From: an uncultured Gammaproteobacteria bacterium
Lineage (GTDB): Bacteria > Patescibacteriota > Patescibacteriia > S139-126
Reading direction: 5' to 3'
Assembly: GCA_964620905.1 (NCBI GenBank)
Contig: CAZUKA010000001.1
Location: 519,646-583,645, forward strand
Length of the DNA stretch: 64,000 nt
Position 1 is the first letter of the stretch, and every line of letters starts with the position of its first letter. Positions 7,622-22,185 of this stretch are shown one piece after another. A program made the translations under genes and the position numbers. The notes beneath the pieces were generated by a model. The model was not told where the DNA came from and searched no databases. It saw only the letters and a program-made list of their open reading frames with translations.

Positions 7622-7885
7622 AAATTAATGTTAATTATTATAGTATATTGAGTATGCGCGTATTTTTTATAAAAAGCAATGATTAATTCTACTACATATG
7701 TTGACGGTTTTATATAAAAATAGTAGCATATTTATATTGTTCATTTATTATATTATTCCGCAGGTTTCTTCAGTCGGTAGAGGTCAGGTTGGACTGGATG
7801 TCCAAACTGACGGCTGTGTCAGCCAGTTGCTCACTGATATGAAGTTGCCTCGCGGTAATTTGTTCTTTGCTTATTTTAATATTAT

Positions 7886-7961
7886 TCCGCGGTAGCTCAG
7901 TCGGTAGAGCAACTGGCTGTTAACCAGTGGGTCGTCGGTTCGAGTCCGACCCGCGGAGCCA
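7886..7961 (+). tRNA. tRNA-Asn (GTT), CCA encoded.
   Basis: 7-bp acceptor tccgcgg/ccgcgga. D-loop agctcagtcggtagagc. Anticodon stem actgg/ccagt with loop ctGTTaa. T-arm ggttcgagtcc. Confidence 0.9.
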
Positions 7962-9560
7962 TATGGGATGAACGGACGCAAAACGTCCGTTTTTCTCTTT
8001 ATTCACGGGCTGAACCAGATGTTCGAAAATCTTATTTGGGTCTATTTTCTCTCCTATCAGTTCTCCCACGTGGTCAAAGATGATCTTGAACGCTTTGTGA
8101 TACGAAACCTGGGCGATTTTGCCGTTTAACGTGGCGTTCGAAAATACGAGCGACAGTAAAAGTCTTTTATCGTCCACCATCTCCTCCGTGTCACGGTTGA
8201 TGTAAATTCTCCATGCCTTTTTGGCCACCTGCAAAACCGTGACGCCCATTTCGTAATATTTCAGGTTGGCGTCCTTGTGCTTATTCAGCGTATCGAGTAT
8301 CTGTTCCTGCTCGACTTTGTATTGCTCGAATTTCTTTTTATAAAAGTCCTCGCTGATTTTGTCGTCGATCTTGTCGTCATAGAGCTTATCCAGCCTTTGC
8401 GTGGCTACTTCATAGCGGCGGTTAAGCTCGCCGGTGGCTTTATTGCGGAATTCTATCTCCTCGCTATGGCTTTCTTTCAAAGCTTCTTGCACCCAGTTGA
8501 GCATATTCTCTACGGCTTGCTCGTTTTTCGGGTTGAGCGAGTTGATTTTCTCAAGCATCTGTACGTCCACCGCTTCCTGCCGCACAAATTCGCGTTTGGT
8601 GCAGTTTTTATAATGATTGCAATGGCCGTACCAGTGACCTCGCTGTATCTCCCAAGTGATCCGGCCTTTGCATTCATCGCACCGGAAGACGTTTTTAAAG
8701 AGCGGATTGTGCTTGAAGTATCTTGGCGTGCCGTTTGTATGCATGATTTCCTGGCACCGGTCGAATAATTCTTTCTTGATCAAGGGTTCGTGTCCGGCTT
8801 TGGTTACTTTGCCATCCCAACGGTTCATGCCGTAATAAAACGGATCGCCCAGAAGCTGGTGGACTCTTGAGTGGCTCACTTTGTTGCCTCCCCGGGACCG
8901 CAATCCTTCCTCGTAGATGACATCGGCCAGCTTCTTGGTCGAGTAGCGGTTCGTGGCATACAGATCAAACATCCGTTTGACGAGCGGCGCTTTATCCGGA
9001 TCAAGCACGTGGATTTTGTGTCCCTTCTCGCCGATGGTTTTATATCCGAGCGGCGGCTTGGCCGGAAGCCATCCTTGAGAGAGTTTTTCCTTTTGACCTT
9101 TCTTTACGTTTTCGGAAAGAAGCCGGATGTAATACTCGGCCGTAGCCACTTTGACGCGCCACATAAACCATTCGTGCGATTTGGAGTCTTTGTGAAGCGT
9201 GCAGTTTTCTTTTACCAGATGGATTTTGTGATCGTCGCTCTCCAATATCCAATTATCGATCACCGGCACATCGGCAAAGTTTCTGGTCAGCCGATCGGTG
9301 GTTTCCACGAACACGGTGCTGATCTTAGCTTTGCTTACGAACGCCATCATTTCGTGGAAGATTTTGCGCTGAACCTTACCGGCGGCCGACTCTTGGATAG
9401 CAAAAACCTTCATGAGCTCGTAGCCGTTGCGGTCGGCATAATCACGAAGGAGTTTTTCCTGGGCTGGAAGCGAGTATCCGGTATCCTCCTGATCCTTGGA
9501 TGAGACACGGGCATATCCTACGGCTTTCGGCGGTTGATTTTCATTCATTGTCATAGTCAT
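7920..9560 (-). CDS. Large serine recombinase (serine integrase).
   Basis: N-terminal resolvase-type catalytic motif VGYARVSSKDQ. Central recombinase domain. C-terminal Cys-rich zinc ribbon (CDECKG...HCNHYKNC). The annotated C-terminus reads through the tRNA-Asn 3' half, so the true stop may differ. Confidence 0.85.
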   Translation of the reverse strand: MTMTMNENQPPKAVGYARVSSKDQEDTGYSLPAQEKLLRDYADRNGYELMKVFAIQESAAGKVQRKIFHEMMAFVSKAKISTVFVETTDRLTRNFADVPVIDNWILESDDHKIHLVKENCTLHKDSKSHEWFMWRVKVATAEYYIRLLSENVKKGQKEKLSQGWLPAKPPLGYKTIGEKGHKIHVLDPDKAPLVKRMFDLYATNRYSTKKLADVIYEEGLRSRGGNKVSHSRVHQLLGDPFYYGMNRWDGKVTKAGHEPLIKKELFDRCQEIMHTNGTPRYFKHNPLFKNVFRCDECKGRITWEIQRGHWYGHCNHYKNCTKREFVRQEAVDVQMLEKINSLNPKNEQAVENMLNWVQEALKESHSEEIEFRNKATGELNRRYEVATQRLDKLYDDKIDDKISEDFYKKKFEQYKVEQEQILDTLNKHKDANLKYYEMGVTVLQVAKKAWRIYINRDTEEMVDDKRLLLSLVFSNATLNGKIAQVSYHKAFKIIFDHVGELIGEKIDPNKIFEHLVQPVNKEKNGRFASVHPIWLRGSDSNRRPTG

Positions 9561-9699
9561 TTTTTGTTAATAATTATTTGTTCGAATACGACCTTTGGTA
9601 CCCAACACCCTATACTAATTTTTATGACAAGCTAAGCGGCAGTTGCCCACATTCTCTAAAAACACCGCAGTTAACTGTAAAATCCTGTAATTATTCTGT

Positions 9700-9862
9700 T
9701 TTTTGCTCATTTTGTTGGGTTTTACCGGGTTTTGTCGGGTTTATTTTTTCCATTTTTGGTGTTAGTTAGTGTCAGTTAGTGTTAGTTACTTTTGTTCAAA
9801 ACGTTGCCGTTTATTGCCGAATCTTGCCGAAAACCGGTGGTATCTGGTGGGTTCTGGTGAGA
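9700..9862. repeat. Cluster of short tandem direct repeats (iteron-like).
   Basis: The cluster contains gggttttaccgggttttgtcgggttt. It contains gttagttagtgtcagttagtgttagttac. It contains ttgccg three times. It contains ggtggtatctggtgggttctggtg. It lies between the integrase start and the 3' end of gene 9866-10438. Confidence 0.5.
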
Positions 9863-9865
9863 TGT

Positions 9866-10438
9866 TTATTTGCCTCGCATCGTCATTTTATCCAGTAAAT
9901 CGGCCTTCATCCGGCGGATTTCCTGTAATTTCTGCGAGCCACCGTTATTTTCTTTATAATTTTCTTTAATTTCTTTTAAACCCTTAACTTCTATATCACC
10001 GCCGTCCGAGGCAGTCTGCTTCCCAAGCCGATCGGTTTTAGATGCAGATTGGCTTCCGTCCTGCATGAGATGTAGGACGGAAAGCAGAGTGATACTCCGA
10101 GGTTTGAACTTGGCATCCTTGCCCCGGACTTTCGTGATCGCGATAAAGCACCACTCCTCGAGCTTAGTGAGGCACTTCTTAATTGTCCGCCAATCTTTGA
10201 GGCCGGAGTACGTGAGAAGCGTTTTGTTGGATGCTTCTATGGTTTGGCTCGCCTTGTTGGAAGCAATCTCGGTTAAGGCGCAATAAACATTCCGCAGGTT
10301 GCGGTAAGCATCATCGCTGATATGTTTATCGAGCCACTGCTTCCGCATATACCGCAAAGCCGGCTTATCCTGATAAGCAAACGGCGCTTCGCGGTAGTCG
10401 CGGACTTTATGATTTTTATTTTGCTGGTTCATCGTCAT
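9866..10438 (-). CDS. Hypothetical protein on the island, possibly replication or regulatory.
   Basis: 190 aa, basic, GC-rich. No conserved motif recognised. The function is suggested only by the adjacent iteron-like repeats. Confidence 0.45.
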   Translation of the reverse strand: MTMNQQNKNHKVRDYREAPFAYQDKPALRYMRKQWLDKHISDDAYRNLRNVYCALTEIASNKASQTIEASNKTLLTYSGLKDWRTIKKCLTKLEEWCFIAITKVRGKDAKFKPRSITLLSVLHLMQDGSQSASKTDRLGKQTASDGGDIEVKGLKEIKENYKENNGGSQKLQEIRRMKADLLDKMTMRGK

Positions 10439-10706
10439 ATGGCACTAAAAGCTTCCGGCCGCTCGTGATGTCCTCGACGTAGAAGCGCATCAAGGCATCG
10501 TAAAAGCCAAGCAGGTTGAAAGCGATATCGTGCAAATCGCGGTCATCGACCTCCTGGCCGAAGTCTTTTTTGAGGATAGCGCGGAGTTTTTCCAGCGTTT
10601 CCGGTTGTAAGTTCACAGGTCTTAGTCCTCGGCATAAATCCGTACTTTGACCTGCTTCAACTGGTTGAAAAACGCTTGAGGCTCGACTTGAAGTTCGCGG
10701 CTCCAA
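10416..10706 (-). CDS. Hypothetical protein. Overlaps the next ORF in another frame.
   Basis: 96 aa ORF. It overlaps 10622-10864 by about 85 nt, so it may be a frameshifted single gene or have a later start. Confidence 0.3.
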   Translation of the reverse strand: MEPRTSSRASSVFQPVEAGQSTDLCRGLRPVNLQPETLEKLRAILKKDFGQEVDDRDLHDIAFNLLGFYDALMRFYVEDITSGRKLLVPYDDEPAK

Positions 10707-10864
10707 TATCGCTTCACCAGAGAATCCAGCTCATGGCTCTTGCCGAAGCAGAAGAGCACCTTGTGCGGATTTCCCCGATCCACGACCTCAAGAGAATCAG
10801 GAATAAATAATAAAAGCACCGCGACCAATGCCAGATCGGCGGTTTTGTAATAATTGTTTTCCAT
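10622..10864 (-). CDS. Hypothetical protein.
   Basis: 80 aa ORF in the GC-rich island. Confidence 0.3.
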   Translation of the reverse strand: MENNYYKTADLALVAVLLLFIPDSLEVVDRGNPHKVLFCFGKSHELDSLVKRYWSRELQVEPQAFFNQLKQVKVRIYAED

Positions 10865-11016
10865 ATGCTGGCATTTTCATCGTCATTAACTTCCTCTCAC
10901 ACACTTTTATTTTTGCAAACGGGATCGGGCTTCTTGAATACTGCGAGCGTATAGTTGCAAAACAAAAAAGCGGCTGTTTCTGCCGCTGATCTTGAGACTT
11001 ATTAACTACACTAGAA

Positions 11017-11682
11017 CTACACCTGTTTTATTTTGTACTCCGGATTGATTTTGTAACCGCTCACGGACCGGCCGGTTATGAAATTATCAACGCCAAGATT
11101 GTACTTTGCTTTGCGATTGATCATGAGCTTGGCATTGTGCAATGCTTTCCGGTTTTTGCTTCCGGTAAGCTCTACCAGCTCGTCTGTCGGCACGAATGTT
11201 TTACGCTCAAGTAAAATCCGGACGATCTTTTGTCTTTGCTTTTCTTTGCCCATTTCATAGCAATGTTTGGCTTTCGGCTCTCGGTATAAGTCGCCGTCGC
11301 TGGAGAAATAGATGACTTTCTTTTTATCTGTCGGTTTCGCTTTCTTGGCGGCTAGTCCGTAGGCCGCGCCCTCGGCCGCCATGCGAGCAATGCTCTTTTC
11401 CAAGTCTGCAACTTTGTTTATGGCCGTCTGATACGCTCGGGTCATAGCTTCCACGCTTTGCGTATTACGGTTCAATGCTTTGGTCAGGTCTACAATAGCC
11501 GGATCACCAGTCTTTACGATGTCCTGCGGATTCTCTATATTCGCAAAATCTTTGAGAGCAGACCGTAGCTCGCTAACGACAGCAGAAATGGTAAATGGAT
11601 AGGTGCTCGTCTTGGCGACAGTCCGTTTGATATTGAATTTGTACTTGGTAGCCAGCGCGGCCTTTTTCATTTTCATAGTCAT
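11017..11682 (-). CDS. Hypothetical protein on the island.
   Basis: 221 aa. Ala/Lys-rich central region. No recognised motif. Confidence 0.5.
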   Translation of the reverse strand: MTMKMKKAALATKYKFNIKRTVAKTSTYPFTISAVVSELRSALKDFANIENPQDIVKTGDPAIVDLTKALNRNTQSVEAMTRAYQTAINKVADLEKSIARMAAEGAAYGLAAKKAKPTDKKKVIYFSSDGDLYREPKAKHCYEMGKEKQRQKIVRILLERKTFVPTDELVELTGSKNRKALHNAKLMINRKAKYNLGVDNFITGRSVSGYKINPEYKIKQV

Positions 11683-11713
11683 CTTTCTATTATTATGACA
11701 AAACGCGGCGATT

Positions 11714-11742
11714 TTGACAATGAAAAATGAAAGCGGTAAAAT
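11714..11742 (+). promoter_or_regulatory. Candidate sigma-70 promoter (TTGACA-17-TAAAAT) for the xis-mod-res operon.
   Basis: ttgacaatgaaaaatgaaagcggtaaaat lies in the divergent intergenic region, about 25 nt upstream of the 11767 start. Confidence 0.45.
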
Positions 11743-11766
11743 GGTATCAACGGCTAAAATAATTTT

Positions 11767-11958
11767 ATGAGTGACATCGAAAAACTTTTCACCATTGAGG
11801 AAGTCGCCGAGATTTTAAGAGTCCATACCCGGACCGTTACCCGGTATATTGAGGCTGGCCGACTTAAGGCGTCAAAGCTTGGGGTCTGGCGGATCAAGCA
11901 GTCTGATTTAGACGCATTTTTGGAAGAAACGAGTAACGTTAAGAAAAAGAAGAAATAA
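11767..11958 (+). CDS. Excisionase-family (MerR-like) HTH DNA-binding protein.
   Basis: LFTIEEVAEILRVHTRTVTRYIEAGRLKASKLGVWRIKQSDLDAFLEE matches the excisionase-family HTH pattern. It lies 2 nt upstream of mod. Confidence 0.7.
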   Translation: MSDIEKLFTIEEVAEILRVHTRTVTRYIEAGRLKASKLGVWRIKQSDLDAFLEETSNVKKKKK

Positions 11959-11960
11959 AT

Positions 11961-13493
11961 ATGGCATCACTAAATTGGATTGGAAAAGAGGCAGTCTCAA
12001 ACCACGATAAGGAGGTGCCTTTTAAGTTGCTCAAAAAAGTTAAGACAGCTTCAGTTGGCGACAACTCTCAAAATCTAATAATCCACGGAGATAATCTTGA
12101 GGCTCTTAAGGCACTCATGCCTCATTATGTTGGGAAAATAAAATGTATCTATATCGATCCTCCGTACAACACCGGAAATGAAGGTTGGGTATATAACGAT
12201 AAAGTAAACTCGCCGAAAATTAAGCAGTGGCTTGGTAAAGTTGTCGGCCGAGAATCCGAAGACCTAACTCGCCATGATAAATGGTTATGCATGATGTATC
12301 CGCGTCTCAAGCTCATGCGAGACTTACTTGCAGATAACGGATTTATTTTTGTCTCCGTAGATGACAATGAACACTGCAATCTTCGTGGTGCAATGGACGA
12401 GATCTTTCTTGAGAAAAATCATATTACGACTATTGCGTGGCAAAGAAAAAAAGAGAGTTCAAATGATAGCAGAAACATCTCTGTGAAAGCAGAATATATT
12501 GTGGTATACGCACGGTCAGAAATTGCCCAGTTAAACTTACTTTCTTTAAGTGAATCCTATATTGAGACCGCTTATAAATTACCCACCAAAGAATTCCCTC
12601 ATGGGAAGTGGAGGCCTGTTCCTATAGCCACGACAAAAGGACATAAAAGTGGTGGATATACTTATGAGATTGTCACGCCTTCCGGTAAAAAGCATAAAAG
12701 AGAATGGGCTTATCCCGAGGAAAGTTATAAGCGTCTCTTAGGTGAAGGAAAAATATATTTCGGAAAAAGCGGTGATGGGGTTCCTCAGCGTGTTATTTAC
12801 GCGCACGAAAGCACGGGCATACCAGCAAGCAATATTTGGACGGATGTAGCGACAAACAAAGAAGGAAAAAATGAGATAGTAAATTTATTTGGAGATGGTA
12901 CTTTCGAAACGCCAAAGCCCGTAGGGTTAATTAGAAGAATTTTGGAACTCGCAACGGAAAAAGATTCGTTAATCTTAGATTCCTTTGCTGGCTCTGGCAC
13001 AACCGGTCATGCGGTGTTGGATTTGAATAAGGAAGATAACGGAACTCGTAAATTTATTATGGTTGAAATGGAAGACAAAGTTGCAAAGGACATTACCGCT
13101 GAACGGGTTAAGAGAGCGATTAAGAAATACGATTATAAGGATGGCTTCGAGTATTGCGAATTAGATAAGCCGCTCTTTAATGAGCACGGCCAGATTGAGG
13201 AAACATGTGATTTCCGGCAATTCGCAACGTATATTTACTTTACTGAAACGCAAACCAACATTGATCCAAAACTGATTAATGAGAATTATATCGGAGAACT
13301 CGGTACGACTGAGTACTACCTGCTTTATCAAGGAAAGAATAAGAACGATCTCAATAAATCTTTCCTGAAGAAAATCAGAAAAACCGATAATAAGAAGGTC
13401 ATTTATGCGGACCGGTGCTTGATCGACGACGAAACGCTTGCTAAGCATAACGTCGTGTTCAAGCAGATACCTTATGAAGTAAAAGTCTATTAA
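11961..13493 (+). CDS. mod: Type III restriction-modification methyltransferase (Mod), beta-class N6A/N4C MTase.
   Basis: Motif IV IYIDPPYNTGNEGW precedes motif I LDSFAGSGTTGHAV, which is the beta-class order. Res follows 4 nt downstream. Confidence 0.85.
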   Translation: MASLNWIGKEAVSNHDKEVPFKLLKKVKTASVGDNSQNLIIHGDNLEALKALMPHYVGKIKCIYIDPPYNTGNEGWVYNDKVNSPKIKQWLGKVVGRESEDLTRHDKWLCMMYPRLKLMRDLLADNGFIFVSVDDNEHCNLRGAMDEIFLEKNHITTIAWQRKKESSNDSRNISVKAEYIVVYARSEIAQLNLLSLSESYIETAYKLPTKEFPHGKWRPVPIATTKGHKSGGYTYEIVTPSGKKHKREWAYPEESYKRLLGEGKIYFGKSGDGVPQRVIYAHESTGIPASNIWTDVATNKEGKNEIVNLFGDGTFETPKPVGLIRRILELATEKDSLILDSFAGSGTTGHAVLDLNKEDNGTRKFIMVEMEDKVAKDITAERVKRAIKKYDYKDGFEYCELDKPLFNEHGQIEETCDFRQFATYIYFTETQTNIDPKLINENYIGELGTTEYYLLYQGKNKNDLNKSFLKKIRKTDNKKVIYADRCLIDDETLAKHNVVFKQIPYEVKVY

Positions 13494-13497
13494 TACT

Positions 13498-15753
13498 ATG
13501 GAACTAAAACGCTACCAAAAAAATACATTAGAGACGCTCGAGCAATTCTTGAAGGAATTGCATAAAGCTGGCTTGAAGTACGCCTTCATGGGCATTACGG
13601 AAAAGCCGTACAGAGCTGAAGCTTTTGGCGAAGTTCCATTTGTCTGCATTAAAATTCCTACCGGGGGTGGCAAGACATTGGTTGGCTGTCATGCCGTAGA
13701 AAAAATAATGAGCGGTGCCCTACAGAACAAATTGGATCGTGGCATAGTTCTTTGGTTTACACCGTCCGAAGCCATCAAGACACAAACACTTAAGAAATTT
13801 AAAGATCGCAAAGATTGGCATCGCAGGGCGTTGGACGAAGCCTTTGATAATAACGTTAAGGTGTTTTCAAACGAGGAGGCTCTTACCATTCGCAAAGAAG
13901 ACGTAAACGGAAACCTTTGTATTATTGTTGCCAGCCTTGAGGCATTCAGAAAAGAAAAAACACTCCAAAATAAATATAAAGTCTATCAGGAGAATGGTGC
14001 GCTCTTAGATCACTTTGAGCATATCGAGGAATCAGATTATCTCGAACGAGATAGTGAAGGAACCGTTGTTAATTCTCTTGCTAATGTCGTCCGGTTAAGC
14101 AACCCACTTGTGGTTATCGATGAGGGTCATAAAACGGCTACTAAACTTTCGATTGATTTCCTCAAAGACCTTAATCCCAGCTTTATTATTGAATATACCG
14201 CTACTCCACGGGATAACAGCAACATTCTCGTTGAGGTTCATGCTTCCGAGCTGAAAGAAGAACAAATGGTGAAGATCCCCATCGTTCTCGAGAGCGCCGC
14301 GCAGTGGCAGAACGCCATTATCCGCGGTGTTGAAAAGCGCATTGAGCTAGAGAAGGATGCAAAGAAAATTAAAGGCGAGTATATACGGCCTATTGCATTG
14401 CTTCAGGCACAGCCAAAAGATGAAAATATCACTGTTGAGAAAATAAAAGAATTTTTACTCGAACGGAAGATACCTGCTGAACAGATCGCAATAAAAATCT
14501 CAGGAAAAAACGAACTCGAGAGAGTAGACCTCTTCGACAGAAAATGTCCGATACGTTACATCATTACAGTAAATGCCCTAGCCGAAGGATGGGATTGTTC
14601 CTTCGCTTATATTCTTGTTTCGGTTGCGAACCTTGGCTCAAAAATTGCTGTTGAGCAGATCATCGGGCGCATCATTCGTTTACCGTACGCCAAGAAAAAA
14701 GCCAATGAAGACTTTAATAGAAGTTATGTCTTTGCTTCTGCTAGGAACTTTAATGAGGCAGCAAGCCAAATTATTTCAGGCCTTGAGACTAACGGCTACA
14801 GTAAGGCAGATATCATAGGTGCGGATAAAAAGGACGCTTCGTATGAGTTGGAAACCAAAAAGGCGGTTTCTGACACGCTCAAAATGCCGATGGTGGCTTT
14901 GGATGGTGAACTGTTGTCATTTGAAGACTTGATTGGTAGTGATTTTGAGTTGTCAAAGCAGGATTACAAATTTGAGTTCCAGATCCATTACGATAACGAC
15001 GGCCGAGCGATCATTGATATCAAAGAGGATGAATGGATGCGCGGCAAGCAGATGTTTTTGAAGCTAAGTTATTCAGACAAAAACTTCACTAAGAATGAGT
15101 TGGTGCAATGGCTTGATAAAAAGCTACGTTTCCCGCTTTTAGAAAAATCAGACAAGGTTGGTTTTCTCGATAAAGCTATTGAGCACCAGCTTAAAACTCA
15201 TACACTTTCCGAACTTTCAGTAAATCGCTACGTCTTAGCTGATCGCTTGAGCGAGGTTATCAACGGCATCCTTGAGGAATATGCCAAGAAAAAATTTGAT
15301 GCTCTGTTGCAGAAAAAGAAAATCGTCACTGAACAGTTCGAGGCATTTCCGGCTGTTATTACTCTCAAGCGACCAGAGCCGAAGGAGTTTAACAAATGCT
15401 ATTACGAGAAAATCGATAAATTGAATGGTGAAGAGCGTGAGTTCGTTGATCGTCTCGATCTCGACACCTTACCCAATGTTAAATATTGGGTTCGTAGCCG
15501 CGAGAAAACCGATCCGTTTTATATTCAGGGTTGGAAGCGAGGAAAGTTTTATCCGGACTTCATTGCGGTCACTAAGAAGGGCGCAATCGTAGCTCTTGAA
15601 TGGAAGGGTGCGGACCGGATAAGCAACGAAGATACGGCATACAAAGTTGAGATCGGTGGAATGTGGTCGAAGCTTGGCAAAGGAAAACTATACTTTTTCT
15701 TGGTGCATACGGGGAATGTTGAAGAAGTGCTGAAGGAAGTTAAAGAATTGTAA
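13498..15753 (+). CDS. res: Type III restriction endonuclease Res subunit (SF2 helicase-like).
   Basis: Walker A KIPTGGGKT. Motif II VVIDEGHK. Helicase C-terminal motifs. 751 aa, immediately downstream of mod. Confidence 0.85.
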   Translation: MELKRYQKNTLETLEQFLKELHKAGLKYAFMGITEKPYRAEAFGEVPFVCIKIPTGGGKTLVGCHAVEKIMSGALQNKLDRGIVLWFTPSEAIKTQTLKKFKDRKDWHRRALDEAFDNNVKVFSNEEALTIRKEDVNGNLCIIVASLEAFRKEKTLQNKYKVYQENGALLDHFEHIEESDYLERDSEGTVVNSLANVVRLSNPLVVIDEGHKTATKLSIDFLKDLNPSFIIEYTATPRDNSNILVEVHASELKEEQMVKIPIVLESAAQWQNAIIRGVEKRIELEKDAKKIKGEYIRPIALLQAQPKDENITVEKIKEFLLERKIPAEQIAIKISGKNELERVDLFDRKCPIRYIITVNALAEGWDCSFAYILVSVANLGSKIAVEQIIGRIIRLPYAKKKANEDFNRSYVFASARNFNEAASQIISGLETNGYSKADIIGADKKDASYELETKKAVSDTLKMPMVALDGELLSFEDLIGSDFELSKQDYKFEFQIHYDNDGRAIIDIKEDEWMRGKQMFLKLSYSDKNFTKNELVQWLDKKLRFPLLEKSDKVGFLDKAIEHQLKTHTLSELSVNRYVLADRLSEVINGILEEYAKKKFDALLQKKKIVTEQFEAFPAVITLKRPEPKEFNKCYYEKIDKLNGEEREFVDRLDLDTLPNVKYWVRSREKTDPFYIQGWKRGKFYPDFIAVTKKGAIVALEWKGADRISNEDTAYKVEIGGMWSKLGKGKLYFFLVHTGNVEEVLKEVKEL

Positions 15754-15765
15754 ATCCTGTAATAA

Positions 15766-16680
15766 ATGGCTAATGAGAATCTTGCAACAAAAGGACCTTC
15801 TCCAAGTGACCTGATAGAACAAAATTCTAAGCAGATCTTTGAGTCAAAGTTACCGCTGACAGGTAGAATATTTATCTGGTATCCAGACAAAAATCCTAAT
15901 ACTGACGGTCACATTGAATTTCTAGGAGAACATGGTTCTACAACTGTTAAACTGTTTTTCCAATTGAAAAGCAGTGAGCAGGATATTGCATATCATGATT
16001 GCGATCGTTCCTTTTTAAATTATTGTTATCAATCTGCTGAACCAACTTTTATAGTTTTTGTTAATATTCCCCAAAAAAAAGTTTACTGGGAGCACATTAC
16101 TCAGTCTTACATTGAGGATGTGCTTGGCGTAAAAAATTTGACCGATTTTAATCAACAAACTAAAAGGATAAGTTTTTCAGAAGAAAAACTCATAGATAAT
16201 AATGCACAAAAACTTATTGAGGAATGTAGGAAACATTATCAAGATAAGTCAAAAGTAGAGGCAGAAGTACAAAGCAATATTTCCGCAGAGCAAAAGCAGA
16301 TCGATATTTTAACCGATGGGGCGCAAAAAGAAGAGGGTGTTGATTACGACATAATAAGAAAAAAGTTCGCCTCGTTGCTTGGTAACATGACCGATAAGAT
16401 GATGTTATATTTTGCTCTGGTTCATATTCTCAAGCCATTTTATTTAGATCAAAGAGGAGAGAAAAAACGCAGAATACTCCTGAGATTCTTGCAAATAACT
16501 GATTCTCAAGAACGATTTCTAATAGAAAGCCTGATAAATGCGAATTTGCTAGGGAGAGTTGGCGAGTTAATTTTTCCAATACGCAAAGAAGAAGCAGTTT
16601 CCGTTATTGAACGTTACATTGATAATGGCCAAGTTGATCTAGCAGAAATAACGCAATTATTCTCTCAAAATGAAGATTAA
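15766..16680 (+). CDS. Uncharacterised protein (304 aa). The N-terminal domain may be restriction-endonuclease-like. Candidate defence-associated.
   Basis: Lies 12 nt after the res stop. Its stop overlaps the next gene's start by 11 nt. No NTPase or MTase motifs. The N-terminal region GRIFIWYPDKNPNTDGHIEFLGEHG...KLFFQLK is reminiscent of DUF4365-type domains found in defence islands, but the assignment is uncertain. Confidence 0.5.
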   Translation: MANENLATKGPSPSDLIEQNSKQIFESKLPLTGRIFIWYPDKNPNTDGHIEFLGEHGSTTVKLFFQLKSSEQDIAYHDCDRSFLNYCYQSAEPTFIVFVNIPQKKVYWEHITQSYIEDVLGVKNLTDFNQQTKRISFSEEKLIDNNAQKLIEECRKHYQDKSKVEAEVQSNISAEQKQIDILTDGAQKEEGVDYDIIRKKFASLLGNMTDKMMLYFALVHILKPFYLDQRGEKKRRILLRFLQITDSQERFLIESLINANLLGRVGELIFPIRKEEAVSVIERYIDNGQVDLAEITQLFSQNED

Positions 16681-19108
16681 ACCAGACAAAAACTTAATAG
16701 CGACATACATGTCGCTCAGTAGCAAGAAGGCCGATGAATATCTGGCTAATTTAGCGAATCAAATAAAAACAGAAATTCAGAACTCATCAGATTATGATGA
16801 AATTTTTGAGTATTTGGAATTACTTGGAGAATTTGTTTATAAAGCACCTAACGAAACTACTCGGATCGTAAGCCACATTGTGGATAAAAAACCCAATCCT
16901 CCAGCCACTCACAAATCTCCATTCGGTGAGTTTGAAGGAAAGTCATACAAGGACTTGATATTGAAGTGTATCGAACTACTTGGTCATATCAGATATATTG
17001 CTCCGGATGATGTCTTGAAATTAATTGCGCAGCTTTCGCTATCAGAAGACCAAAATATAAAAAGCAAAACTCTAGAAGCCTTAAAAAAGTTTGCTCAATA
17101 CGATTTTAATGTCCTTACCAAGAGTAAAATTGGTTATGGAGCACAGAGAAAGGCTCTTGATTTCATCCTTGCATGGACCCGTGATGAGCAATTTCAACAT
17201 ATTGATTTTGTTGAAAAAGTATTAAGAGAGTTGCTTAGCGCTTCTGTAGAAGGAACCACGTCAGGATTAAACGATGAAGCACAGTATACAATAACGATGC
17301 ATTTTGGTGCTGTCTCGCCAACAGATTTTTTGAAGAAATTGCGCCGTGAGGTAATAGATCTTGTATATGAGTTATATTCAACAACCAAAGATTCAAAATT
17401 AAAATTAAAACTTGTAGAGATTCTTGATGAAACAACACGGACTCCCTCAAATGTAGCTTATGGAGATGATGTAGCTCAAATGATTGTTGATGATCTTAAA
17501 TATCTAACTGGAATTTATCGTAAAATCATCTTCCCAGAAACCGGAAAGATGAATGATCATTTAGGCATCATTGCCACTGTTGAGGAGCGACTCTATTGGA
17601 TTAACAGAAGCGAGAAAAGGCGTGCTGAAGAATCGGAACAACTACGTCAAGATATTTTGAATGACGAACTGTATCATCTTTTCAGGTTACTTGTTGGGGA
17701 CCCTGTTACATATCAGGAACAGGAAGGTTGGAATACGGCTGAAAAAAATAGAGCCGAAGAGACTGAGCAAGTCATAAGCTCAATTGAGGAAACTGAAATT
17801 GAAAAATGGCTTGAAAAATTTAATAAAATTGCTTCTCAGCATGTGCTTGTTGATGAGTGGAAATTTAACCCCTTTAAAGGACTTTTAAGAAAGCTTGCTG
17901 AAACAAAACCTATTGTAGCTGAGAAAATCTTAGAAAGTGTGTTCGTAAGCAATGCCCCTCTCAAGCATTTTACTAGCAGCTTCTTGGATGGTTTTAGAAT
18001 GGGTTCCCATTTCAAACAATGGGATAAATTTATATCGAAAATCATTGAGAATAAAGATACTTCTTTGATAAGTGGGATAGTTTTCTCTCTTAATCTTCCC
18101 GCTGATGCAGACTTACAGAAGCTTATGAGAGAAGAGGATATTGATTTACTTAAAAAAATAGCAAATCGAGTTGACCAATTTTCATTCCTTGATCAGGAAG
18201 ATGACCGGGTCCTGTTATATGCCCTCTTTAATACTTTGTCTCGTAATTTCCAGCGCGCCCCTCAAAGCATTGAGCCGCTAATTGTAGAGCAGATAAAGAA
18301 ACACCCTAAATATTTGGGTATGTTTTTCTCTGAGTTATCAATGATTACTCATAGGAAGTGGATCGATATCAAAAATCTACAACCCGAAACCATTGCTTTT
18401 CTTGAGGAGAAAATTGTTGAGCTTCCTGATGTTGATTGGCACGTTCAAGAGCTGTTGTTAGAAATCGGACAACAATATGGTCTTGGCAAAGTACTGGACG
18501 TGTTTATGAATAGAATTAAAAAAGATGCAGAGAAAGATAAAAAGAAGCCACGACGTATTGGTGACGATAGGTATGAAGTGATTCCTTACCATTTCAACCC
18601 AGACTTAAGTGCGTTTATTACTGAGCACGAAGACTACATAAAAATTGCTGGCAGTTGGGTTGCTGAAATGACTACCGACTGGAGTGGCTACAATTGGCAC
18701 GTTAGTCATTTTCTACAAAGGAATGGTAAAGGGTTTGATGAAATCTTGGCCTCTCTTATAGAGAAAGGTGATGACGAGAGCTTATTGAAAGCAGCTCGTG
18801 CTATGCATTCTATTGAAGGAACTAATTTTGATTTGTGTATTGAAATAGTACGCCAAACTGATAATAAAAGAGTTTTAAGTCAGGTCGACAGCAATATGTA
18901 CACAACTGGTGTCGTGTCAGGTGAGTATGGACTAGCGGAAGCCTATGAGGCTAAAGCAAAAGCACTAGAAAAATATAAAAATGATGAAAGTAAACGAGTT
19001 ATGAAATTTGCGGAAAGAATGATAGTAAGTTTTCTTGATAGTGCAAAAAGAGAACGCCAGCGCACGGACGAAGAAAAACAGCTAAGAAAAATTGAATTTG
19101 AGGAATAA
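16670..19108 (+). CDS. Uncharacterised large alpha-helical protein (812 aa), partner of 15766-16680.
   Basis: Translationally coupled to the upstream gene. Helical-repeat-like composition. No Walker A (only GEFEGKS, which is one residue short). No recognisable catalytic motif. Confidence 0.5.
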   Translation: MKIKPDKNLIATYMSLSSKKADEYLANLANQIKTEIQNSSDYDEIFEYLELLGEFVYKAPNETTRIVSHIVDKKPNPPATHKSPFGEFEGKSYKDLILKCIELLGHIRYIAPDDVLKLIAQLSLSEDQNIKSKTLEALKKFAQYDFNVLTKSKIGYGAQRKALDFILAWTRDEQFQHIDFVEKVLRELLSASVEGTTSGLNDEAQYTITMHFGAVSPTDFLKKLRREVIDLVYELYSTTKDSKLKLKLVEILDETTRTPSNVAYGDDVAQMIVDDLKYLTGIYRKIIFPETGKMNDHLGIIATVEERLYWINRSEKRRAEESEQLRQDILNDELYHLFRLLVGDPVTYQEQEGWNTAEKNRAEETEQVISSIEETEIEKWLEKFNKIASQHVLVDEWKFNPFKGLLRKLAETKPIVAEKILESVFVSNAPLKHFTSSFLDGFRMGSHFKQWDKFISKIIENKDTSLISGIVFSLNLPADADLQKLMREEDIDLLKKIANRVDQFSFLDQEDDRVLLYALFNTLSRNFQRAPQSIEPLIVEQIKKHPKYLGMFFSELSMITHRKWIDIKNLQPETIAFLEEKIVELPDVDWHVQELLLEIGQQYGLGKVLDVFMNRIKKDAEKDKKKPRRIGDDRYEVIPYHFNPDLSAFITEHEDYIKIAGSWVAEMTTDWSGYNWHVSHFLQRNGKGFDEILASLIEKGDDESLLKAARAMHSIEGTNFDLCIEIVRQTDNKRVLSQVDSNMYTTGVVSGEYGLAEAYEAKAKALEKYKNDESKRVMKFAERMIVSFLDSAKRERQRTDEEKQLRKIEFEE

Positions 19109-19112
19109 AAGT

Positions 19113-19445
19113 ATGGAAATCGAATCAAAAAAACAAATTCTTGAACGGCGGAAAGAGATTGAGCAGGAACTCGTGGAAAAGCTCAAAGAGACCGAGAGTG
19201 ATTTTACTTTGGATCATGTCCGGGATGCTATTTATAACGAGGAAGAAAGCGACGACATGATGAAAGTTGTTGCTATGTTTGATGGTTCGACTTCGCTCAC
19301 CACAGGTCGCGGTGGTGATGCCACCGAGCTTGAAAATGTGCTCGAGTTGGTCAGCGATGCGTGGAATTATTTTCCGCACAAAGTACTCGGTGGCATCTCT
19401 CCGGCCGAGAAATTATTAGAGCATCACAATAAAACTAAAAAATAA
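19113..19445 (+). CDS. Small acidic hypothetical protein.
   Basis: About 110 aa. A GAGGA Shine-Dalgarno sits 8 nt upstream of ATG at 19113. Begins 4 nt after the stop of the 812 aa gene. Confidence 0.45.
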   Translation: MEIESKKQILERRKEIEQELVEKLKETESDFTLDHVRDAIYNEEESDDMMKVVAMFDGSTSLTTGRGGDATELENVLELVSDAWNYFPHKVLGGISPAEKLLEHHNKTKK

Positions 19446-19447
19446 AT

Positions 19448-19924
19448 ATGAAAATCAACAACACATTCAAACTCATCATCGCAATAGTTGTTTCTGAGCT
19501 GGCAGGTATCATCGGTTCGGTGTTTACGACTCCGTCTATTGATGGCTGGTACTCGACGCTTGTTAGGCCAGCACTTAATCCTCCGGCATGGGTATTCGGA
19601 CCCGTCTGGACGACCCTCTTTGCCCTTATGGGCATTGCGGCGTTTCTTGTTTGGAAAAAAGGATTGGATCGCAGGGATGTAAAAATCGCTCTCGGCATAT
19701 TTCTCGGCCAGCTAGTGCTCAATACACTCTGGTCAATCATCTTTTTCGGCCTGCATTCTCCGGGCGGCGCGTTTATTGAGATCATATTCCTCTGGCTTGC
19801 CATTCTTACTACGATCATCGCTTTTGCACGTATCTCGAAACCGGCCGCCTGGCTTCTTGTGCCATATATCCTCTGGGTCAGCTTTGCCGCGTATCTTAAT
19901 TACTCTATTTGGATGTTGAATTAA
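19448..19924 (+). CDS. tspO: TspO/MBR family tryptophan-rich sensory (translocator) protein.
   Basis: 158 aa with five transmembrane segments. WYSTLVRPALNPPAWVFGPVWTTLFALMGIAAFLVW and Trp-rich helices are characteristic of TspO. Confidence 0.8.
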   Translation: MKINNTFKLIIAIVVSELAGIIGSVFTTPSIDGWYSTLVRPALNPPAWVFGPVWTTLFALMGIAAFLVWKKGLDRRDVKIALGIFLGQLVLNTLWSIIFFGLHSPGGAFIEIIFLWLAILTTIIAFARISKPAAWLLVPYILWVSFAAYLNYSIWMLN

Positions 19925-19928
19925 ACAT

Positions 19929-20396
19929 ATGGAACACTACAAACACACTCAAATTGGTTATCTGATGATCTTTATAACGCTCATGGTGCTGGTCTTTTTC
20001 GCATGGCTTCAGATTACGGCTAGAGCCGAGCCGCCCTCTGTTGATTCAGGTGCAAATTTTGCTATGACAGCCGTCATGGTACTGGTAGTGCTTATTCTTG
20101 CATCTTTCGGCTGGCTTACCGTGAGAGTTGACGAACAACATGTGGCAATCAAGTTTGGCTGGGGAATATTCCGCAAAAAATTCTCAACAAGTGAGATTGC
20201 TTCGGTCGCGCAGGTAAAAAATCATTGGTATTACGGATGGGGCATCCGATTGTGGTTTTGGCCGAAAATGTGGATTTATAATGTCTCCGGCTTTGATGCC
20301 ATAGAGCTGACTATGAAAAACGGAAAAATCTATCGCATCGGCACTGACGAGACAGAAAAACTTGAGTCCGCAATCAAGCGAGTCATATTTGCTTAA
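19929..20396 (+). CDS. Membrane protein with two N-terminal transmembrane helices and a PH-like soluble domain, hypothetical.
   Basis: 155 aa. The C-terminal region resembles bacterial PH (YdbS/T-like) domains. Last gene of the island operon. Confidence 0.45.
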   Translation: MEHYKHTQIGYLMIFITLMVLVFFAWLQITARAEPPSVDSGANFAMTAVMVLVVLILASFGWLTVRVDEQHVAIKFGWGIFRKKFSTSEIASVAQVKNHWYYGWGIRLWFWPKMWIYNVSGFDAIELTMKNGKIYRIGTDETEKLESAIKRVIFA

Positions 20397-20723
20397 CTTT
20401 TCAGAAATTAAGCAAATCGTCCCAGGCTCTCAAATTTCGTCCAATGGCTTGGTGAGTCTGCAACATGGGTCAAACGTCTAGCCCGGGGACAAAGCTCGCC
20501 CCCGGGGCAAACAAACGGCAATTCCGGTGGGTTCTAAACGTGTTCGTATTTGGCGAGTAAACCTTTCATCTGGTCGAGCATAACCGTCGGGTATTTGTAC
20601 TCTTTGATCCAGTCAAACGCTCGAAAGTCACGGAGAAGGGCGAGCCATGAAAATTGCGTCACCATTAGGTGGCGCTATTTTCATATCTGGGAGGATGAGA
20701 AGTTTATCCCGCCAACGGCGGGA

Positions 20724-20744
20724 AGTCCGACCCGCGGAGCCATA
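20724..20744 (+). repeat. attR-side direct repeat, a copy of the tRNA-Asn 3' end.
   Basis: The 21 nt agtccgacccgcggagccata are identical to 7943-7963. A hairpin cccgccaacggcggg lies just upstream. Confidence 0.7.
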
Positions 20745-22016
20745 ACAAAGAACACCACATTTATTGGTGTTTTTTGTATAGGGCAAGTGAAGGTTATAAT
20801 CAAACTTTATAATTTTGTGTATAATTATACATAGACCTTAAATTTAATAATTAAGTTGTATAATTATGTGGGAATTATTTATTGATATTTTAGCTAGTTT
20901 ATGCTCATTTGTGCTCTCAATATCTATTTTTATTATTTTGCCGATCGCATTATATAGAGGTATTAAGAAAAAGAATTGGAAATTATTAAGAATTGTTTTA
21001 TTCACGATCATTTCATCTGCCGGTATTTATACTTTACTCATCTTTTCTATATTACCATCATTAATAAATGAGCCTATTAAAACCCAAAGTAGTGTAGATA
21101 ATTTGTTACCTATGTACGGTGGAGAAAATCGAATAAAAACATCTTCTCAAATAGAAGCAGACGAAAAATTTATATCAGAAATGATTGACATTGCAGGAAG
21201 TAGAGAGGAAGCGGCAGAGGGTATCGTAAACGGAGCTTGGGAATTTTTTGAGCAGGGTGATATTGATATAGCGATGAAAAGATTTAATCAAGCTTGGCTA
21301 CTAGACCCACAGAATATAGAAGCTTATAAGGGCTTCGCCGCAATTTTAGAAAAGAGAGGTCAGCCTGAAGAAGCACGAAAGATGCTACAAAAAGCTCAAG
21401 ACGTTAGTACTGCAAAGTAAAATATAATATATATTAATAAAAACTATTGTTATATGGAGAGTAGGGTAGACTAGAAAGTATATATTACACCACACCGCTG
21501 GTTCTAATTTTCTCCACATTATGAAATATACCTAATGAAGGTAGTTAAATTTTTTAGTTCCTAGCGACCGTGTTGTTTAGTAATAGTTTGTCAGTTATAA
21601 TATAGAATACTCCACTAAGGGGTATTTTTGTGAAAATGTTTTTTTATTGACAAAACAGTAAAAGTGTAACGTTTTTTAAATAACTGCCCATTATATAAAT
21701 GTATAATTGTGTTAATAATTAACAATAAAAATATGGATAAAAAAATGTATATAAATAGCACCATAGGTCTTGCTATTTTGACCATATTTATCCCAAGAGT
21801 TCTTTTATAGTAACTTTTTCTCAATCTGTTACAATTACTAATATATACACATCCTATCCAGACATTCTAAACTAATATAATTTATTTCAATTATCACCTA
21901 AAGGCTTAACTATTTGTTAAGCCTTTTTAATTATTTAAGTTATATTTATTTAACTCTTTCTTACTAATTTTTATGGATAAATATATCCTAGTAAGTTCGG
22001 TAAGTATGTAATCTGT
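20745..22016. mobile_element. Degenerate second islet (remnant element or satellite) of about 1.3 kb.
   Basis: Bounded by 45-nt direct repeats (20736-20780 and 22017-22061) that consist of the tRNA 3' tail plus a terminator-like hairpin. It contains a single TPR gene and no recombinase. Confidence 0.45.
20866..21420 (+). CDS. Membrane-anchored TPR-repeat protein.
   Basis: Two N-terminal transmembrane helices. C-terminal TPR-like repeats (AWEFFEQGDIDIAMKRFNQAWLLDPQNIEAYKGFAAILEKRGQPEEA). Confidence 0.55.
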   Translation: MWELFIDILASLCSFVLSISIFIILPIALYRGIKKKNWKLLRIVLFTIISSAGIYTLLIFSILPSLINEPIKTQSSVDNLLPMYGGENRIKTSSQIEADEKFISEMIDIAGSREEAAEGIVNGAWEFFEQGDIDIAMKRFNQAWLLDPQNIEAYKGFAAILEKRGQPEEARKMLQKAQDVSTAK

Positions 22017-22061
22017 GGAGCCATACAAAAACCACCAATCTTTATTGGTGTTTTTTGTATA
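22017..22061 (+). repeat. Direct repeat: tRNA-Asn 3' tail plus terminator hairpin. Likely the original host sequence downstream of the tRNA.
   Basis: ggagccatacaaaaaccaccaatctttattggtgttttttgtata matches 20736-20780 with a few mismatches. It contains the hairpin caccaat/attggtg followed by a T-run. Confidence 0.55.
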
Positions 22062-22185
22062 TCTGGATTACCATTTCAAATTTCATAATATGTTTGACGA
22101 ATTATAAATATATGTTAGTATAATTTATTACATAAAAAGCTATTTAACAATTCAAAAAATATATTTATTTAAAGAGGAGGTTCTT

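Follow-up and report, generated by a model that had tools for sequence, protein, structure and literature searches.

Introduction

In archaeal viruses and plasmids, tyrosine integrases of the SSV type ("suicidal" integrases) carry their attachment site inside the integrase open reading frame (ORF); when such an element enters a tRNA gene, the integrase gene is split into two parts, which come to lie at the two ends of the integrated element and are described as inactive (PMC7253208, PMC8371274). Here, we describe an analogous arrangement around a large serine recombinase (LSR) in a 64,000-nucleotide (nt) stretch of DNA (the window; contig CAZUKA010000001.1 of GenBank assembly GCA_964620905.1, positions 519,646 to 583,645) from an uncultured bacterium with a Patescibacteriota lineage in GTDB. 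From sequence comparisons, it is likely that window positions 7956 to 20648 are a 12,686-bp integrative element that the LSR inserted at the 3' end of a tRNA-Asn gene and that belongs to a Patescibacteria-wide family. As in the SSV-type systems, the attachment site of the free element (attP) lies inside the integrase ORF, and the gene is partitioned upon integration into the tRNA gene. We regard the element as an analogue of these systems and not as a member, given the differences in enzyme class, in host domain, and in how much of the gene is split off: the window enzyme is a serine recombinase without the tyrosine recombinase fold, its hosts are Patescibacteria, and only the last ~35 codons are removed, which leaves the catalytic and DNA-binding domains in one ORF.

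Other described systems share parts of this design. The LSRs of phiC31, Bxb1, A118/LI, TP901-1, SCCmec CcrAB, and XisF have the same order of resolvase and recombinase domains, which in the window LSR may likewise be followed by a zinc ribbon with an embedded coiled coil. Like the window family, phage-type LSRs use a very short core, and the outer box of attP lies 5 bp further out than that of the bacterial site (attB). The window family differs from them in targeting a tRNA 3' end and not a protein-coding gene or intergenic site, in having attP within the integrase frame with a C-terminus that is altered on integration, and in having a P' arm that is a terminator. P4-like tRNA islands with tyrosine integrases share the integrase beside a tRNA gene, the regenerated 3' end, defense cargo, tandem accretion, strain-variable content, and deviant composition. 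These islands leave repeats of 15 to 50 nt from a carried tRNA 3' segment, whereas attachment sites of the window family have only GAGC in common and the tRNA stays nearly all host. In the integration-dependent immunity of mycobacteriophages, reportedly described by Broussard et al. in 2013, a tyrosine integrase uses an attP in the repressor gene, and the C-terminal change acts as a state sensor. The window element likewise has attP in a coding sequence but cuts the integrase itself, and any regulatory effect is hypothetical. A literature search of incomplete coverage found neither tRNA-Asn-targeting LSRs in Patescibacteria nor a self-splitting serine integrase, and we provisionally consider such an integrase at the Patescibacteria tRNA-Asn gene to be novel.

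An earlier reading of the same DNA, made from its letters without database searches (the sequence-only reading), had proposed an integrative element of about 12.8 kb bounded by a 21-nt direct repeat of the tRNA 3' end. The coordinates of all features discussed below are collected in Table 1.

Results

A serine recombinase gene that ends inside a tRNA gene

The 546-amino-acid (aa) protein encoded beside tRNA-Asn is an LSR by domains and fold. The hidden Markov model search that the sequence-only reading had proposed returned the Pfam domains Resolvase (PF00239; E = 1e-22; residues 13 to 163) and Recombinase (PF07508; E = 5e-18; residues 188 to 275), and residues 3 to 495 matched phrog_95, a phage serine-integrase family (9e-71). 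None of the catalytic residues R18, S20, and S21 varies among 20 homologues, and a PDB sequence search matched the catalytic domains of TnpX and TP901-1. We also examined the AlphaFold2 (AF2) model of an unsplit homologue, P0045 (mean predicted local distance difference test [pLDDT] score of 81.5; beta strands and long helices at residues 318 to 454), which aligned over its full length to the Bxb1, phiC31, and LI integrase-att complexes (E = 1e-17 to 1e-10). Since the scores of the LSR against the XisF and Ccr equivalog models were far under their cutoffs, we place it in a separate clade. Catalysis of attP × attB recombination, and excision with a directionality factor, are predicted from family membership. 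Exact-protein lookups for the LSR, the UbiA-family protein, and p155 gave no match.

The gene runs on the minus strand into an intact tRNA-Asn gene, just as had been read from the letters. Residues 1 to 535 are encoded by the element, and the last 11 (RGSDSNRRPTG) are read from the tRNA, with the TAA stop codon (7920 to 7922) falling within the anticodon loop.

The detached 3' end of the integrase gene

In unsplit relatives, the LSR runs past a PIWL motif into a tail of ~35 aa with the pattern W-D-D-F-R-T-L-x-W...Y-P-E...Q-x-L-L. When unsplit tails were used as tblastn queries, detached tail segments were found in 22 integrated loci, including the window. All of them lie on the LSR strand, 7 to 12.7 kb upstream, each starting exactly at a GAGC core, and 22 of 22 keep the reading frame that the core W-L codons define. 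The window tail comprises 37 codons with no stop or frameshift; its counterparts in loci L005 and L006 (Table 1) belong to elements whose LSRs are 77 to 79% identical to that of the window. Joining the LSR (...HPIWL) to positions 20647 to 20534 via the core yields an uninterrupted ORF of 570 aa. If the two ends are joined via the 21-nt repeat instead, the free-form LSR ends in ...IWLRGSDFPPLAG and a stop (RGSDFPPLAG), and the conserved tail is bypassed.

Between tails, synonymous sites were saturated or had a dS (synonymous divergence) of ~0.3 to 1.3, and dN (nonsynonymous divergence) was 0.03 to 0.38. Where computable, dN/dS was 0.06 to 0.28 for the whole tail and 0.00 to 0.40 for its distal part (codons 13 to 37, which lie 36 to 110 nt from the core, beyond any half-site). 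These comparisons indicate that the tail is under purifying selection as a protein and is not merely a binding site. Purifying selection on a detached coding segment suggests, in turn, that the gene is regularly reassembled and that the elements excise. Natural in-frame fusions of an LSR C-terminus to this tail subtype occur in P0224 (...SAHPIWLALLNDFRTFDWASEYKYPTVVLDQMKGLLSKYENV) and, similarly, in P0226. The tail of P0231 matches that of the window from LALLRDF onward behind a different flank, which points to a separate insertion of this type of element. The P0045 model places a disordered linker before the tail, which folds into short helices and a terminal helix of 14 residues (pLDDT of ~65 to 72); tail peptides had no match in Pfam. 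An alternative annotation of 20628 to 20650 as an unrelated ORF (MARPSP, stop) was rejected, as the core-based alignment shows the in-frame tail.

A clade of recombinases that target tRNA-Asn

A search at E ≤ 1e-20 returned 1,450 LSR homologues, named, where a name was given, as Paceibacterota, Patescibacteria, Roizmanbacteria, or Minisyncoccia. We retrieved 80 loci from GTDB species representatives (of 171 relatives) and 80 from Joint Genome Institute (JGI) metagenomes (of at least 507). Scripted tRNA scans covered about 163 relatives, nearly all of Patescibacteria origin, 107 of which adjoin tRNA-Asn: 81 LSR genes end inside an intron-less tRNA-Asn gene on the opposite strand and 26 inside a tRNA-Asn gene with an intron of 170 to 600 nt. 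Other targets were tRNA-Gln (two relatives) and tRNA-Leu (one); about 20 relatives were unsplit, with the longer C-terminal tail, and the remainder were cut by contig ends. In the alignment of LSR C-termini, P-(I)-W-L is invariant; beyond it the sequences diverge, and the strings found there, such as RGWDSNPRP, represent tRNA T-arms in reverse translation. Judged from these loci, targeting of the tRNA-Asn 3' end is a property of the clade and not a peculiarity of the window. Serine integrases had been called uncommon at tRNA ends; this is true in general, but in this large Patescibacteria clade they are the rule.

Several loci depart from the simple pattern. The introns (170 to 600 nt; in L005, L008, L023, L038, L045, L056, L082, L091, L115, and others) sit in the anticodon loop; that of L008 (11652 to 12044) is a group I intron (RF00028, 77.9 bits), and ARAGORN frequently gave a wrong anticodon for intron-containing tRNA-Asn genes. 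Other tRNAs, namely, tRNA-Leu(CAG) with the core GCACCA and tRNA-Gln, are used in L077 (6566 to 11623), L107, and L131. A detached in-frame tail lies 5 kb off in L077, so the split-gene design persists despite the change of target. In L085 (8440 to 8520), an LSR 97% identical to that of the window adjoins a 24-nt tRNA-Asn 3' fragment, GTTCGAGTCCTACCCGGGGAGCCA, and no whole tRNA. This fragment is directly preceded by a PG_binding_1 gene, and tRNA fragments may serve as secondary targets. LSR relatives were also present on contigs labeled Methanodesulfokora, Bathyarchaeia, Nanoarchaeia, Simkania, Gammaproteobacteria, and Pseudomonadales (L070, L080/L161, L068, L018, and binchicken metagenome-assembled genome loci), which reflects either misbinning or mislabeling or a host range beyond Patescibacteria.

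A probable 4-nt crossover core and asymmetric half-sites

We compared the left (attL) and right (attR) junctions in 16 pairs from relatives for which both ends could be located. The block of identity contained GAGC in 16 of 16 pairs, and in 11 of them it comprised GAGC and nothing more; the window has GAGCCAT. The GAGC core corresponds to tRNA positions 71 to 74. When 96 distinct attL junctions were aligned in tRNA orientation, the T-stem and acceptor stem were host-variable and always self-complementary, and conserved element DNA began at G(G)AGCCA, continuing with (T/G)AT(G/A)GGA, a hairpin, and a T-run. Repeats of the tRNA end of at least 11 nt within 10 kb upstream were absent in 48 of 50 relatives, the exceptions being single chance-like 14-nt repeats in L019 and L067, which favors the short-core model. 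In L061, attL reads GGAGC followed by AGAATAGG, and attR reads GAGC followed by CAGGCTT; comparisons of this type locate the exchange no further right than the C of GAGC. Judged by a near-palindrome around G-GA-GC, GA may be the central dinucleotide. A crossover in the T-loop was considered and rejected, because the 3' strands of the attL T-stem and acceptor stem always pair with the host 5' strands despite identical P' arms.

The half-sites differ in spacing. Relative to GAGC, the TTCGA box starts at -17 in the 96 B arms, which are tRNA sequence, and at -22 in the 22 P arms; the second box starts at -11 in both (TCC(C/T)A in the B arms and TCCCA in the P arms). The P arm is thus a mimic of the tRNA T-arm with 5 extra bp between the boxes. 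This offset between attP and attB half-sites is reported to have been described by Rutherford et al. in 2013 for the LI and A118 integrase. The D-F-R codons of the tail are the antisense of the TTCGA box, which explains part of the tail conservation. The window P arm (20620 to 20641) contains the family outer box, CTCGAAAGTC (a T-loop mimic), with matches at seven of eight positions; by eye, the arm left of the second 21-nt copy matches at none or one of the eight.

The two candidate cores predict different junctions. Exchange at GAGCCAT would give GGAGAAGGGCGAGCCATATGGGATGAAC and GACCCGCGGAGCCATGAAAATTGCG (synthetic attP, GGAGAAGGGCGAGCCATATGGGATGAACGG; synthetic attB, GTCCGACCCGCGGAGCCATGAAAATTGCGTC). 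Exchange at the 21-nt repeat would give the circle junction GGCGGGAAGTCCGACCCGCGGAGCCATATGGGATG and the empty site GGTTCGAGTCCGACCCGCGGAGCCATAACAAAG (synthetic circle, CGGCGGGAAGTCCGACCCGCGGAGCCATATGGGATG; synthetic empty site, GGTTCGAGTCCGACCCGCGGAGCCATAACAAAGAAC).

A probable replacement terminator in the P' arm

The ~40 nt that follow the tRNA CCA serve three purposes: one strand codes for the LSR C-terminus (...NGRFASVHPIWL), the P' half-site lies within them, and the tRNA strand has a hairpin and T-run; the P' arm is encoded antisense to the LSR codons NGRFASVHPI. All 89 distinct relatives fold into a hairpin with a T-run, and their stems differ (GCAGAGC/GCTCTGC, CATCAGC/GCTGGTG, GGACG/CGTCC, CAGGGG/CCCCTG, and others), with double compensatory changes at 5 of 5 consensus hairpin pairs. 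Such conservation of structure suggests that the element substitutes the terminator that it displaces. A terminator scan listed the 7970-to-7992 hairpin second and the 20656-to-20675 hairpin first. An Rfam search of 7600 to 8100 returned the tRNA as its sole match.

Boundaries and composition of the element

Nucleotide homology to the L005 and L006 elements reaches 20645 and then ends. On the basis of this end, together with the P-arm motif and the in-frame tail at 20534 to 20648, we delimit the LSR element as 7956 to 20648. It is bounded by a 7-nt core (7956 to 7962 and 20642 to 20648), one copy of which lies in the tRNA 3' end. The start at 7886 given in the sequence-only reading is that of the tRNA, which is intact as stated there; the 21-nt repeat itself starts at 7943. 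The 21-mer, AGTCCGACCCGCGGAGCCATA, does occur exactly twice (7943 to 7963 and 20724 to 20744; 0 of 100 shuffles). Its proposed role as the att site was not supported: relatives share GAGC, homology ends at 20645, and the P-arm motif and tail lie at 20534 to 20648. The repeat is probably not the recombination site of the LSR.

The GC content of the element (42.2%) differs from that of the left (31.7%) and right (36.0%) flanks, and in sliding windows it rises from 25 to 36% in the flanks to 35 to 50% within the element. The profile runs from 44 to 50% at 8 to 11.5 kb through 40 to 42% at 11.5 to 16 kb and 35 to 38% at 16 to 19 kb to 44 to 47% at 19 to 20.5 kb. The GC-richer segment noted earlier is therefore real, and the values given for it were roughly correct, though too high for 16 to 19 kb. 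Sigma-70, DnaG, Fpg, and a treble-clef zinc-finger protein are encoded in the flanks. Together with an NCBI contig of 716,806 bp that carries the same LSR protein, and with the Patescibacteria names of LSR homologues, these genes suggest that the window is chromosomal DNA of a small Patescibacteria genome.

Logan contigs of the same strain (L001, L002, L083, L084, and L170) show occupied junctions alone, with no empty site among them. Contigs from SRR10807626 and SRR10807893 both break at 7993 and at 20486/20487, inside the element ends, and an interior contig spans 8679 to 17954. These breaks could represent strain variants, related elements with common 30-mers, or coverage.

TABLE 1 Features of the tRNA-Asn locus (window coordinates)
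Feature	Position	Strand	Evidence or remarks
tRNA-Asn(GTT), integration target	7886..7961	+	ARAGORN; Rfam RF00005, 73 bits; intact, own CCA encoded
LSR, integrated-state ORF, 546 aa	7920..9560	-	Pfam; PHROG; NCBIfam XisF/CcrB-like, below cutoffs
21-nt direct repeat, copy 1 (tRNA 3' end + TA)	7943..7963	+	Exact match
attL core GAGCCAT, common to attR	7956..7962	.	Crossover probably within GAGC
P' arm of element	7963..8000	+	Conserved (T/G)AT(G/A)GGA box, hairpin 7970-7992, then T-run
p190, predicted winged-helix DNA-binding protein	9866..10438	-	47 loci; AF2 core pLDDT 72-93
p96	10416..10706	-	55 loci; no Pfam, PHROG, or NCBIfam match
DUF5659-domain protein, 80 aa	10622..10864	-	Pfam 1e-8; 104/162 loci, most conserved LSR partner
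p221	11017..11682	-	36 loci
Divergent promoter-like pair, p221/HTH gene	11692..11742	.	11/12 (+) and 10/12 (-), consensus matches alone
HTH_17/excisionase-family protein, 63 aa	11767..11958	+	Pfam 1.6e-17; TIGR01764 3e-12; PHROG excisionase families; 27 loci
Type III restriction-modification (R-M) methyltransferase Mod, cargo	11961..13493	+	PADLOC MTase_III 3e-166; Pfam N6_N4_Mtase
Type III R-M restriction subunit Res, cargo	13498..15753	+	PADLOC REase_III 5e-95; Pfam ResIII
DUF4365 protein, cargo	15766..16680	+	Pfam 4e-11; weak PADLOC REase-like match
p812, 812 aa, cargo, no family	16670..19108	+	Homologue in L113
p117, 117 aa, cargo	19092..19445	+	Homologue in L113 together with p812 homologue
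TspO/MBR membrane protein, cargo	19448..19924	+	Pfam TspO_MBR 7e-53
p155, 155-aa membrane protein, cargo	19929..20396	+	
Detached LSR gene 3' end, WLALLRDFRAFDWIKEYKYPTVMLDQMKGLLAKYEHV then stop; doubles as attP P arm	20534..20647	-	83% identical to L006 tail, 78% to L005 tail
attR core GAGCCAT, cognate right end of LSR element	20642..20648	.	Shared-core comparison with attL
75-nt spacer, outside LSR element	20649..20723	+	49% GC vs 29% beyond; terminator-like hairpin 20656-20675
Displaced native tRNA 3' end (21-nt copy 2, 20724-20744) and native terminator T2	20724..20780	+	T2 aligns with sister tRNA-Asn terminator
AT-rich 1.3-kb variable segment, tetratricopeptide repeat (TPR)/transmembrane (TM) gene 20866-21420	20745..22061	+	Ends in third partial copy GGAGCCATA and terminator T3 (22017-22061)

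A sister strain and the older layers of the locus

Contigs of a sister strain (L171 to L175, from five samples) were reached via a variant of a flanking 152-aa protein. Their flanks are 97.5% identical to those of the window, and their tRNA region is 100% identical to 7874 to 7961. Window positions 7679 and 23081 are ~640 nt apart in the sister (L171:9306-9942), which is without the LSR element, the TPR gene, and the UbiA-family gene (22186 to 22974); in all, 15.4 kb of the window (7680 to 23080) is replaced by those ~640 nt. The DNA is thus absent at the same locus in a close relative, in agreement with the earlier claim of inserted mobile-type DNA at the tRNA-Asn 3' end, and the tRNA unit is inverted there. 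The sister tRNA is followed by a 50-nt insert and then by TAACAAAAAACATCTCAATTTGAGATGTTTTTTGT, homologous to TAACAAAGAACACCACATTTATTGGTGTTTTTTGT after the second 21-nt copy in the window. Because terminator T2 is homologous to the sister terminator, the second copy and T2 most likely represent the displaced native tRNA end, and 7962 to 20744 is all insert relative to that end. A third partial repeat at 22017 to 22061, also seen before, is present and is 78% identical to 20736 to 20780. The empty site predicted from it (tRNA-Asn followed directly by 22017 to 22061) was found in part: the sister terminator is homologous to T2 and T3, but the 50-nt insert intervenes and the unit is inverted.

The segment from 20745 to 22061, whose sister counterpart is 79 nt alone (21441 to 21518), is probably an older remnant outside the LSR element, and the locus as a whole is a multilayer variable hotspot. 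Among the fetched loci, the spacer at 20649 to 20723 had no homologue besides the window and the same-strain contigs L083/L084. Its layout (core, 8 nt, hairpin at 20656 to 20675, and T-run) resembles a P' arm, and an older insertion probably left the spacer behind as a scar. In this account, an older tRNA-Asn-targeting element would have made the 20/21-nt repeat and shrunk to the 75-nt scar, and the LSR element would have inserted beside the tRNA afterwards. The 21-nt repeat looks like the footprint of a classical P4-like event and not of the LSR, and 20745 to 22061, with the third partial copy, looks like a layer of still greater age. Tandem accretion in relatives makes the older-scar account plausible: L168 (10001 to 18656) consists of tRNA-Asn, element 2, an in-frame junction of LSR1 with tail 2, and element 1; L019, L050, and L176 hold similar or decayed tandem arrays; and L067 has an extra tRNA fragment ~100 nt beyond attR. 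The tandem arrays, which consist of two different LSR elements with the inner integrase fused in frame to the tail of its neighbor, also account for the unsplit LSR copies in chromosomes. The B' arm shows no conservation, so recognition in array formation may need no more than the tRNA arm.

Directly upstream of the real tRNA, positions 7745 to 7860 repeat, in degenerate form, the 5' half of tRNA-Asn and the region that precedes it (TATTATTCCGCAGGTTTCTTCAGTCGGTAGAG...). Neither ARAGORN nor Rfam recognized it, and it may be a rearrangement scar.

Backbone and cargo genes

To count conserved genes, we ran tblastn with the element proteins of the window against 165 loci. The LSR was found in 162, followed by the backbone genes at the counts given in Table 1, from the DUF5659 protein down to the HTH_17 (helix-turn-helix) protein. 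Among the cargo genes, Mod was found in 27 loci (mostly at <40% identity), Res in 11, and the others in 0 to 2. The DUF5659 protein is a candidate directionality or regulatory factor. A fold search with p190 gave weak RepA-N, TFE, and MarR matches (E = 0.01 to 0.03) that indicate a generic winged helix only; going by its model, p190 may be a regulator or a replication protein. Searches of p190, p221, and p812 against PDB sequences gave nothing useful. The promoter-like sites at 11692 to 11742 separate the leftward backbone genes from the rightward HTH_17-Mod-Res genes, an arrangement that resembles a small genetic switch region.

The excisionase-like HTH protein and the defense cargo noticed in the sequence-only reading were both borne out by profile searches. 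Mod and Res lie adjacent in that order (11961 to 15753), as in a type III R-M system. The DUF4365 protein (restriction-endonuclease-like fold), p812, and p117 (15766 to 19445) form a tight codirectional cassette that is a candidate uncharacterized defense system. The element of L085, with the 97%-identical LSR, has the same backbone (genes 88 to 100% identical) and a different type III R-M system. The type III R-M system and the other cargo would be passively carried defense. Pfam, PHROGs, and NCBIfam scans of the window proteins found no capsid, portal, terminase, tail, or lysis genes and no clear replication genes. Relaxase and type IV secretion system (T4SS) domains were found in no ORF by Pfam or NCBIfam; the origin of transfer (oriT) was not searched for.

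Discussion

We hold the overall anatomy proposed here, an LSR-inserted element from 7956 to 20648, with good confidence, while its current mobility is still a proposal. The right boundary could be drawn differently, with the 21-nt repeat as the att core of the LSR, an element of 12.78 kb, and the tail-GAGC site at 20642 as a relic of an ancestral end. That the repeat is exact and nonrandom, that a native-type terminator follows it, and that all the DNA between its copies is absent in the sister strain fit such a reading, and the LSR of L085 at its 24-nt tRNA fragment implies that tRNA-like left arms occur. It is nevertheless improbable, given that the longest identity block in a tRNA-integrated relative pair is 9 nt (GAGCAAAAT, L072), that 48 of 50 relatives lack comparable repeats of at least 11 nt, that the outer P-arm box is nearly complete at 20620 to 20641 and all but missing beside the copy, that homology to L005 and L006 ends before the copy is reached, and that the free LSR would lose a conserved tail that lies intact at 20534 to 20647. 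Whether the island still moves is a separate matter. A fixed, immobile remnant, with the LSR and its tail decaying in a hotspot shaped by rearrangements, would account for the inversion relative to the sister strain, for the tRNA fragments and scars, for decayed tandem junctions in relatives such as L176, and for the lack of an excised form or clean empty site. We consider a remnant unlikely: the LSR ORF is complete and keeps every invariant residue, the two cores match each other exactly (GAGCCAT), the 37-codon tail is undamaged, the backbone is intact and 88 to 100% identical to that of the independent L085 element, and the same tail behind another flank in P0231 indicates recent mobility of the element type.

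Identity as a prophage, phage satellite, or integrated plasmid, in place of a simple integrative island, would agree with the phage PHROG matched by the integrase, the excisionase PHROGs matched by the HTH protein, the weak resemblance of the p190 winged helix to plasmid RepA N-domains, and a distant relative (L167) with Phage_rep_O, ImmA/IrrE-type, and HTH_3 genes. We give it little credence, because virion, lysis, and transfer genes were not found by the profile searches above, about 7 kb of only 12.7 kb is R-M and cargo of no known function, the RepA-like matches have E values of >0.01, and the family is missing from IMG/VR. Finally, the tail might not be integrase protein at all, its conservation reflecting a DNA-level attP arm or an independent small gene. 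Its first ~25 nt do coincide with the P-arm recognition boxes, and the core codon is ATG or TTG in some attR sites (L005, L006, and L060), with an in-frame ATG 6 codons upstream in the window. However, amino acid conservation with saturated synonymous change extends over codons 13 to 37, beyond the half-sites; all 22 detached tails keep the frame of the core W-L codons; unsplit genes and natural ORFs fuse the tail to LSR C-termini; and no start codon that lies in a host flank can count as conserved. This explanation is very unlikely.

Several results weigh against the interpretation that we prefer, an LSR element with a GAGC core and a split integrase gene. The zinc-ribbon profile PF13408 was not reported for the LSR at E ≤ 0.01, with the Cys pattern CDEC...CNHYKNC present and homologue P0045 scoring 28.6 bits against a cutoff of 25.3. 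The window P arm is without the TCCCA box of most relatives, having CGGAG in its place (TGGAG in L005 and TCAGT in L006). The in-frame ATG lies in the flank, and the tail could be expressed alone. A chance origin would be unusual for an exact repeat of 21 nt, and we infer the older scar that would explain it. The sister site is rearranged, with an inverted tRNA unit and other flanks, and it shows the absence of the insert but no clean attB. Neither a circular junction, nor a free-form contig, nor a precise empty site of this element was found; terminal repeats indicative of circular contigs were present in 0 of 166 loci. The reconstituted free-form LSR, in both junction versions (including that of 570 aa), is absent from a collection of 15 billion proteins, and the LSR family has 0 relatives in the 2.9 million contigs of IMG/VR.

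If the LSR element is as we propose, a cycle can be outlined. With attP inside the LSR frame, the free form would encode the 570-aa enzyme with its conserved, helical ~35-aa tail. Integration would replace this tail by the 11 tRNA-derived residues and leave the tail-coding segment in frame at attR. Excision would be carried out by the truncated LSR with a directionality factor, for which the DUF5659 and HTH_17 proteins are candidates. Purifying selection on the tail suggests that the element still alternates between integrated and free states. More tentatively, the tail may act as an internal state sensor and so determine which way recombination runs, an idea that we think more likely to be wrong than right. 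The tethered helical tail of the free 570-aa integrase would then favor attP × attB integration or be needed for it, and the tail-less enzyme of the integrated state would be either silent, with the element locked, or prone to excision with a partner such as the DUF5659 protein.

Serine integrases are valued for genome engineering, and their direction is normally controlled by separate accessory proteins. An integrase frame remodeled by its own reaction would be a new way of encoding directionality. If the state-sensor idea is true, the family would hold a natural self-rewiring directionality switch, conserved in elements of Patescibacteria by the hundreds and linked to DNA with three overlapping roles, those of protein tail, enzyme binding site, and tRNA terminator. 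Searches for long direct repeats would misdelimit these elements, as the true shared core of the family is just 4 nt. We know of no genetic tools for the Candidate Phyla Radiation (CPR), and to our knowledge, the routes by which its tiny genomes acquire defense genes have been little explored. The family described here offers a near-universal CPR landing site, GAGC at the 3' end of tRNA-Asn, intron-containing genes included.

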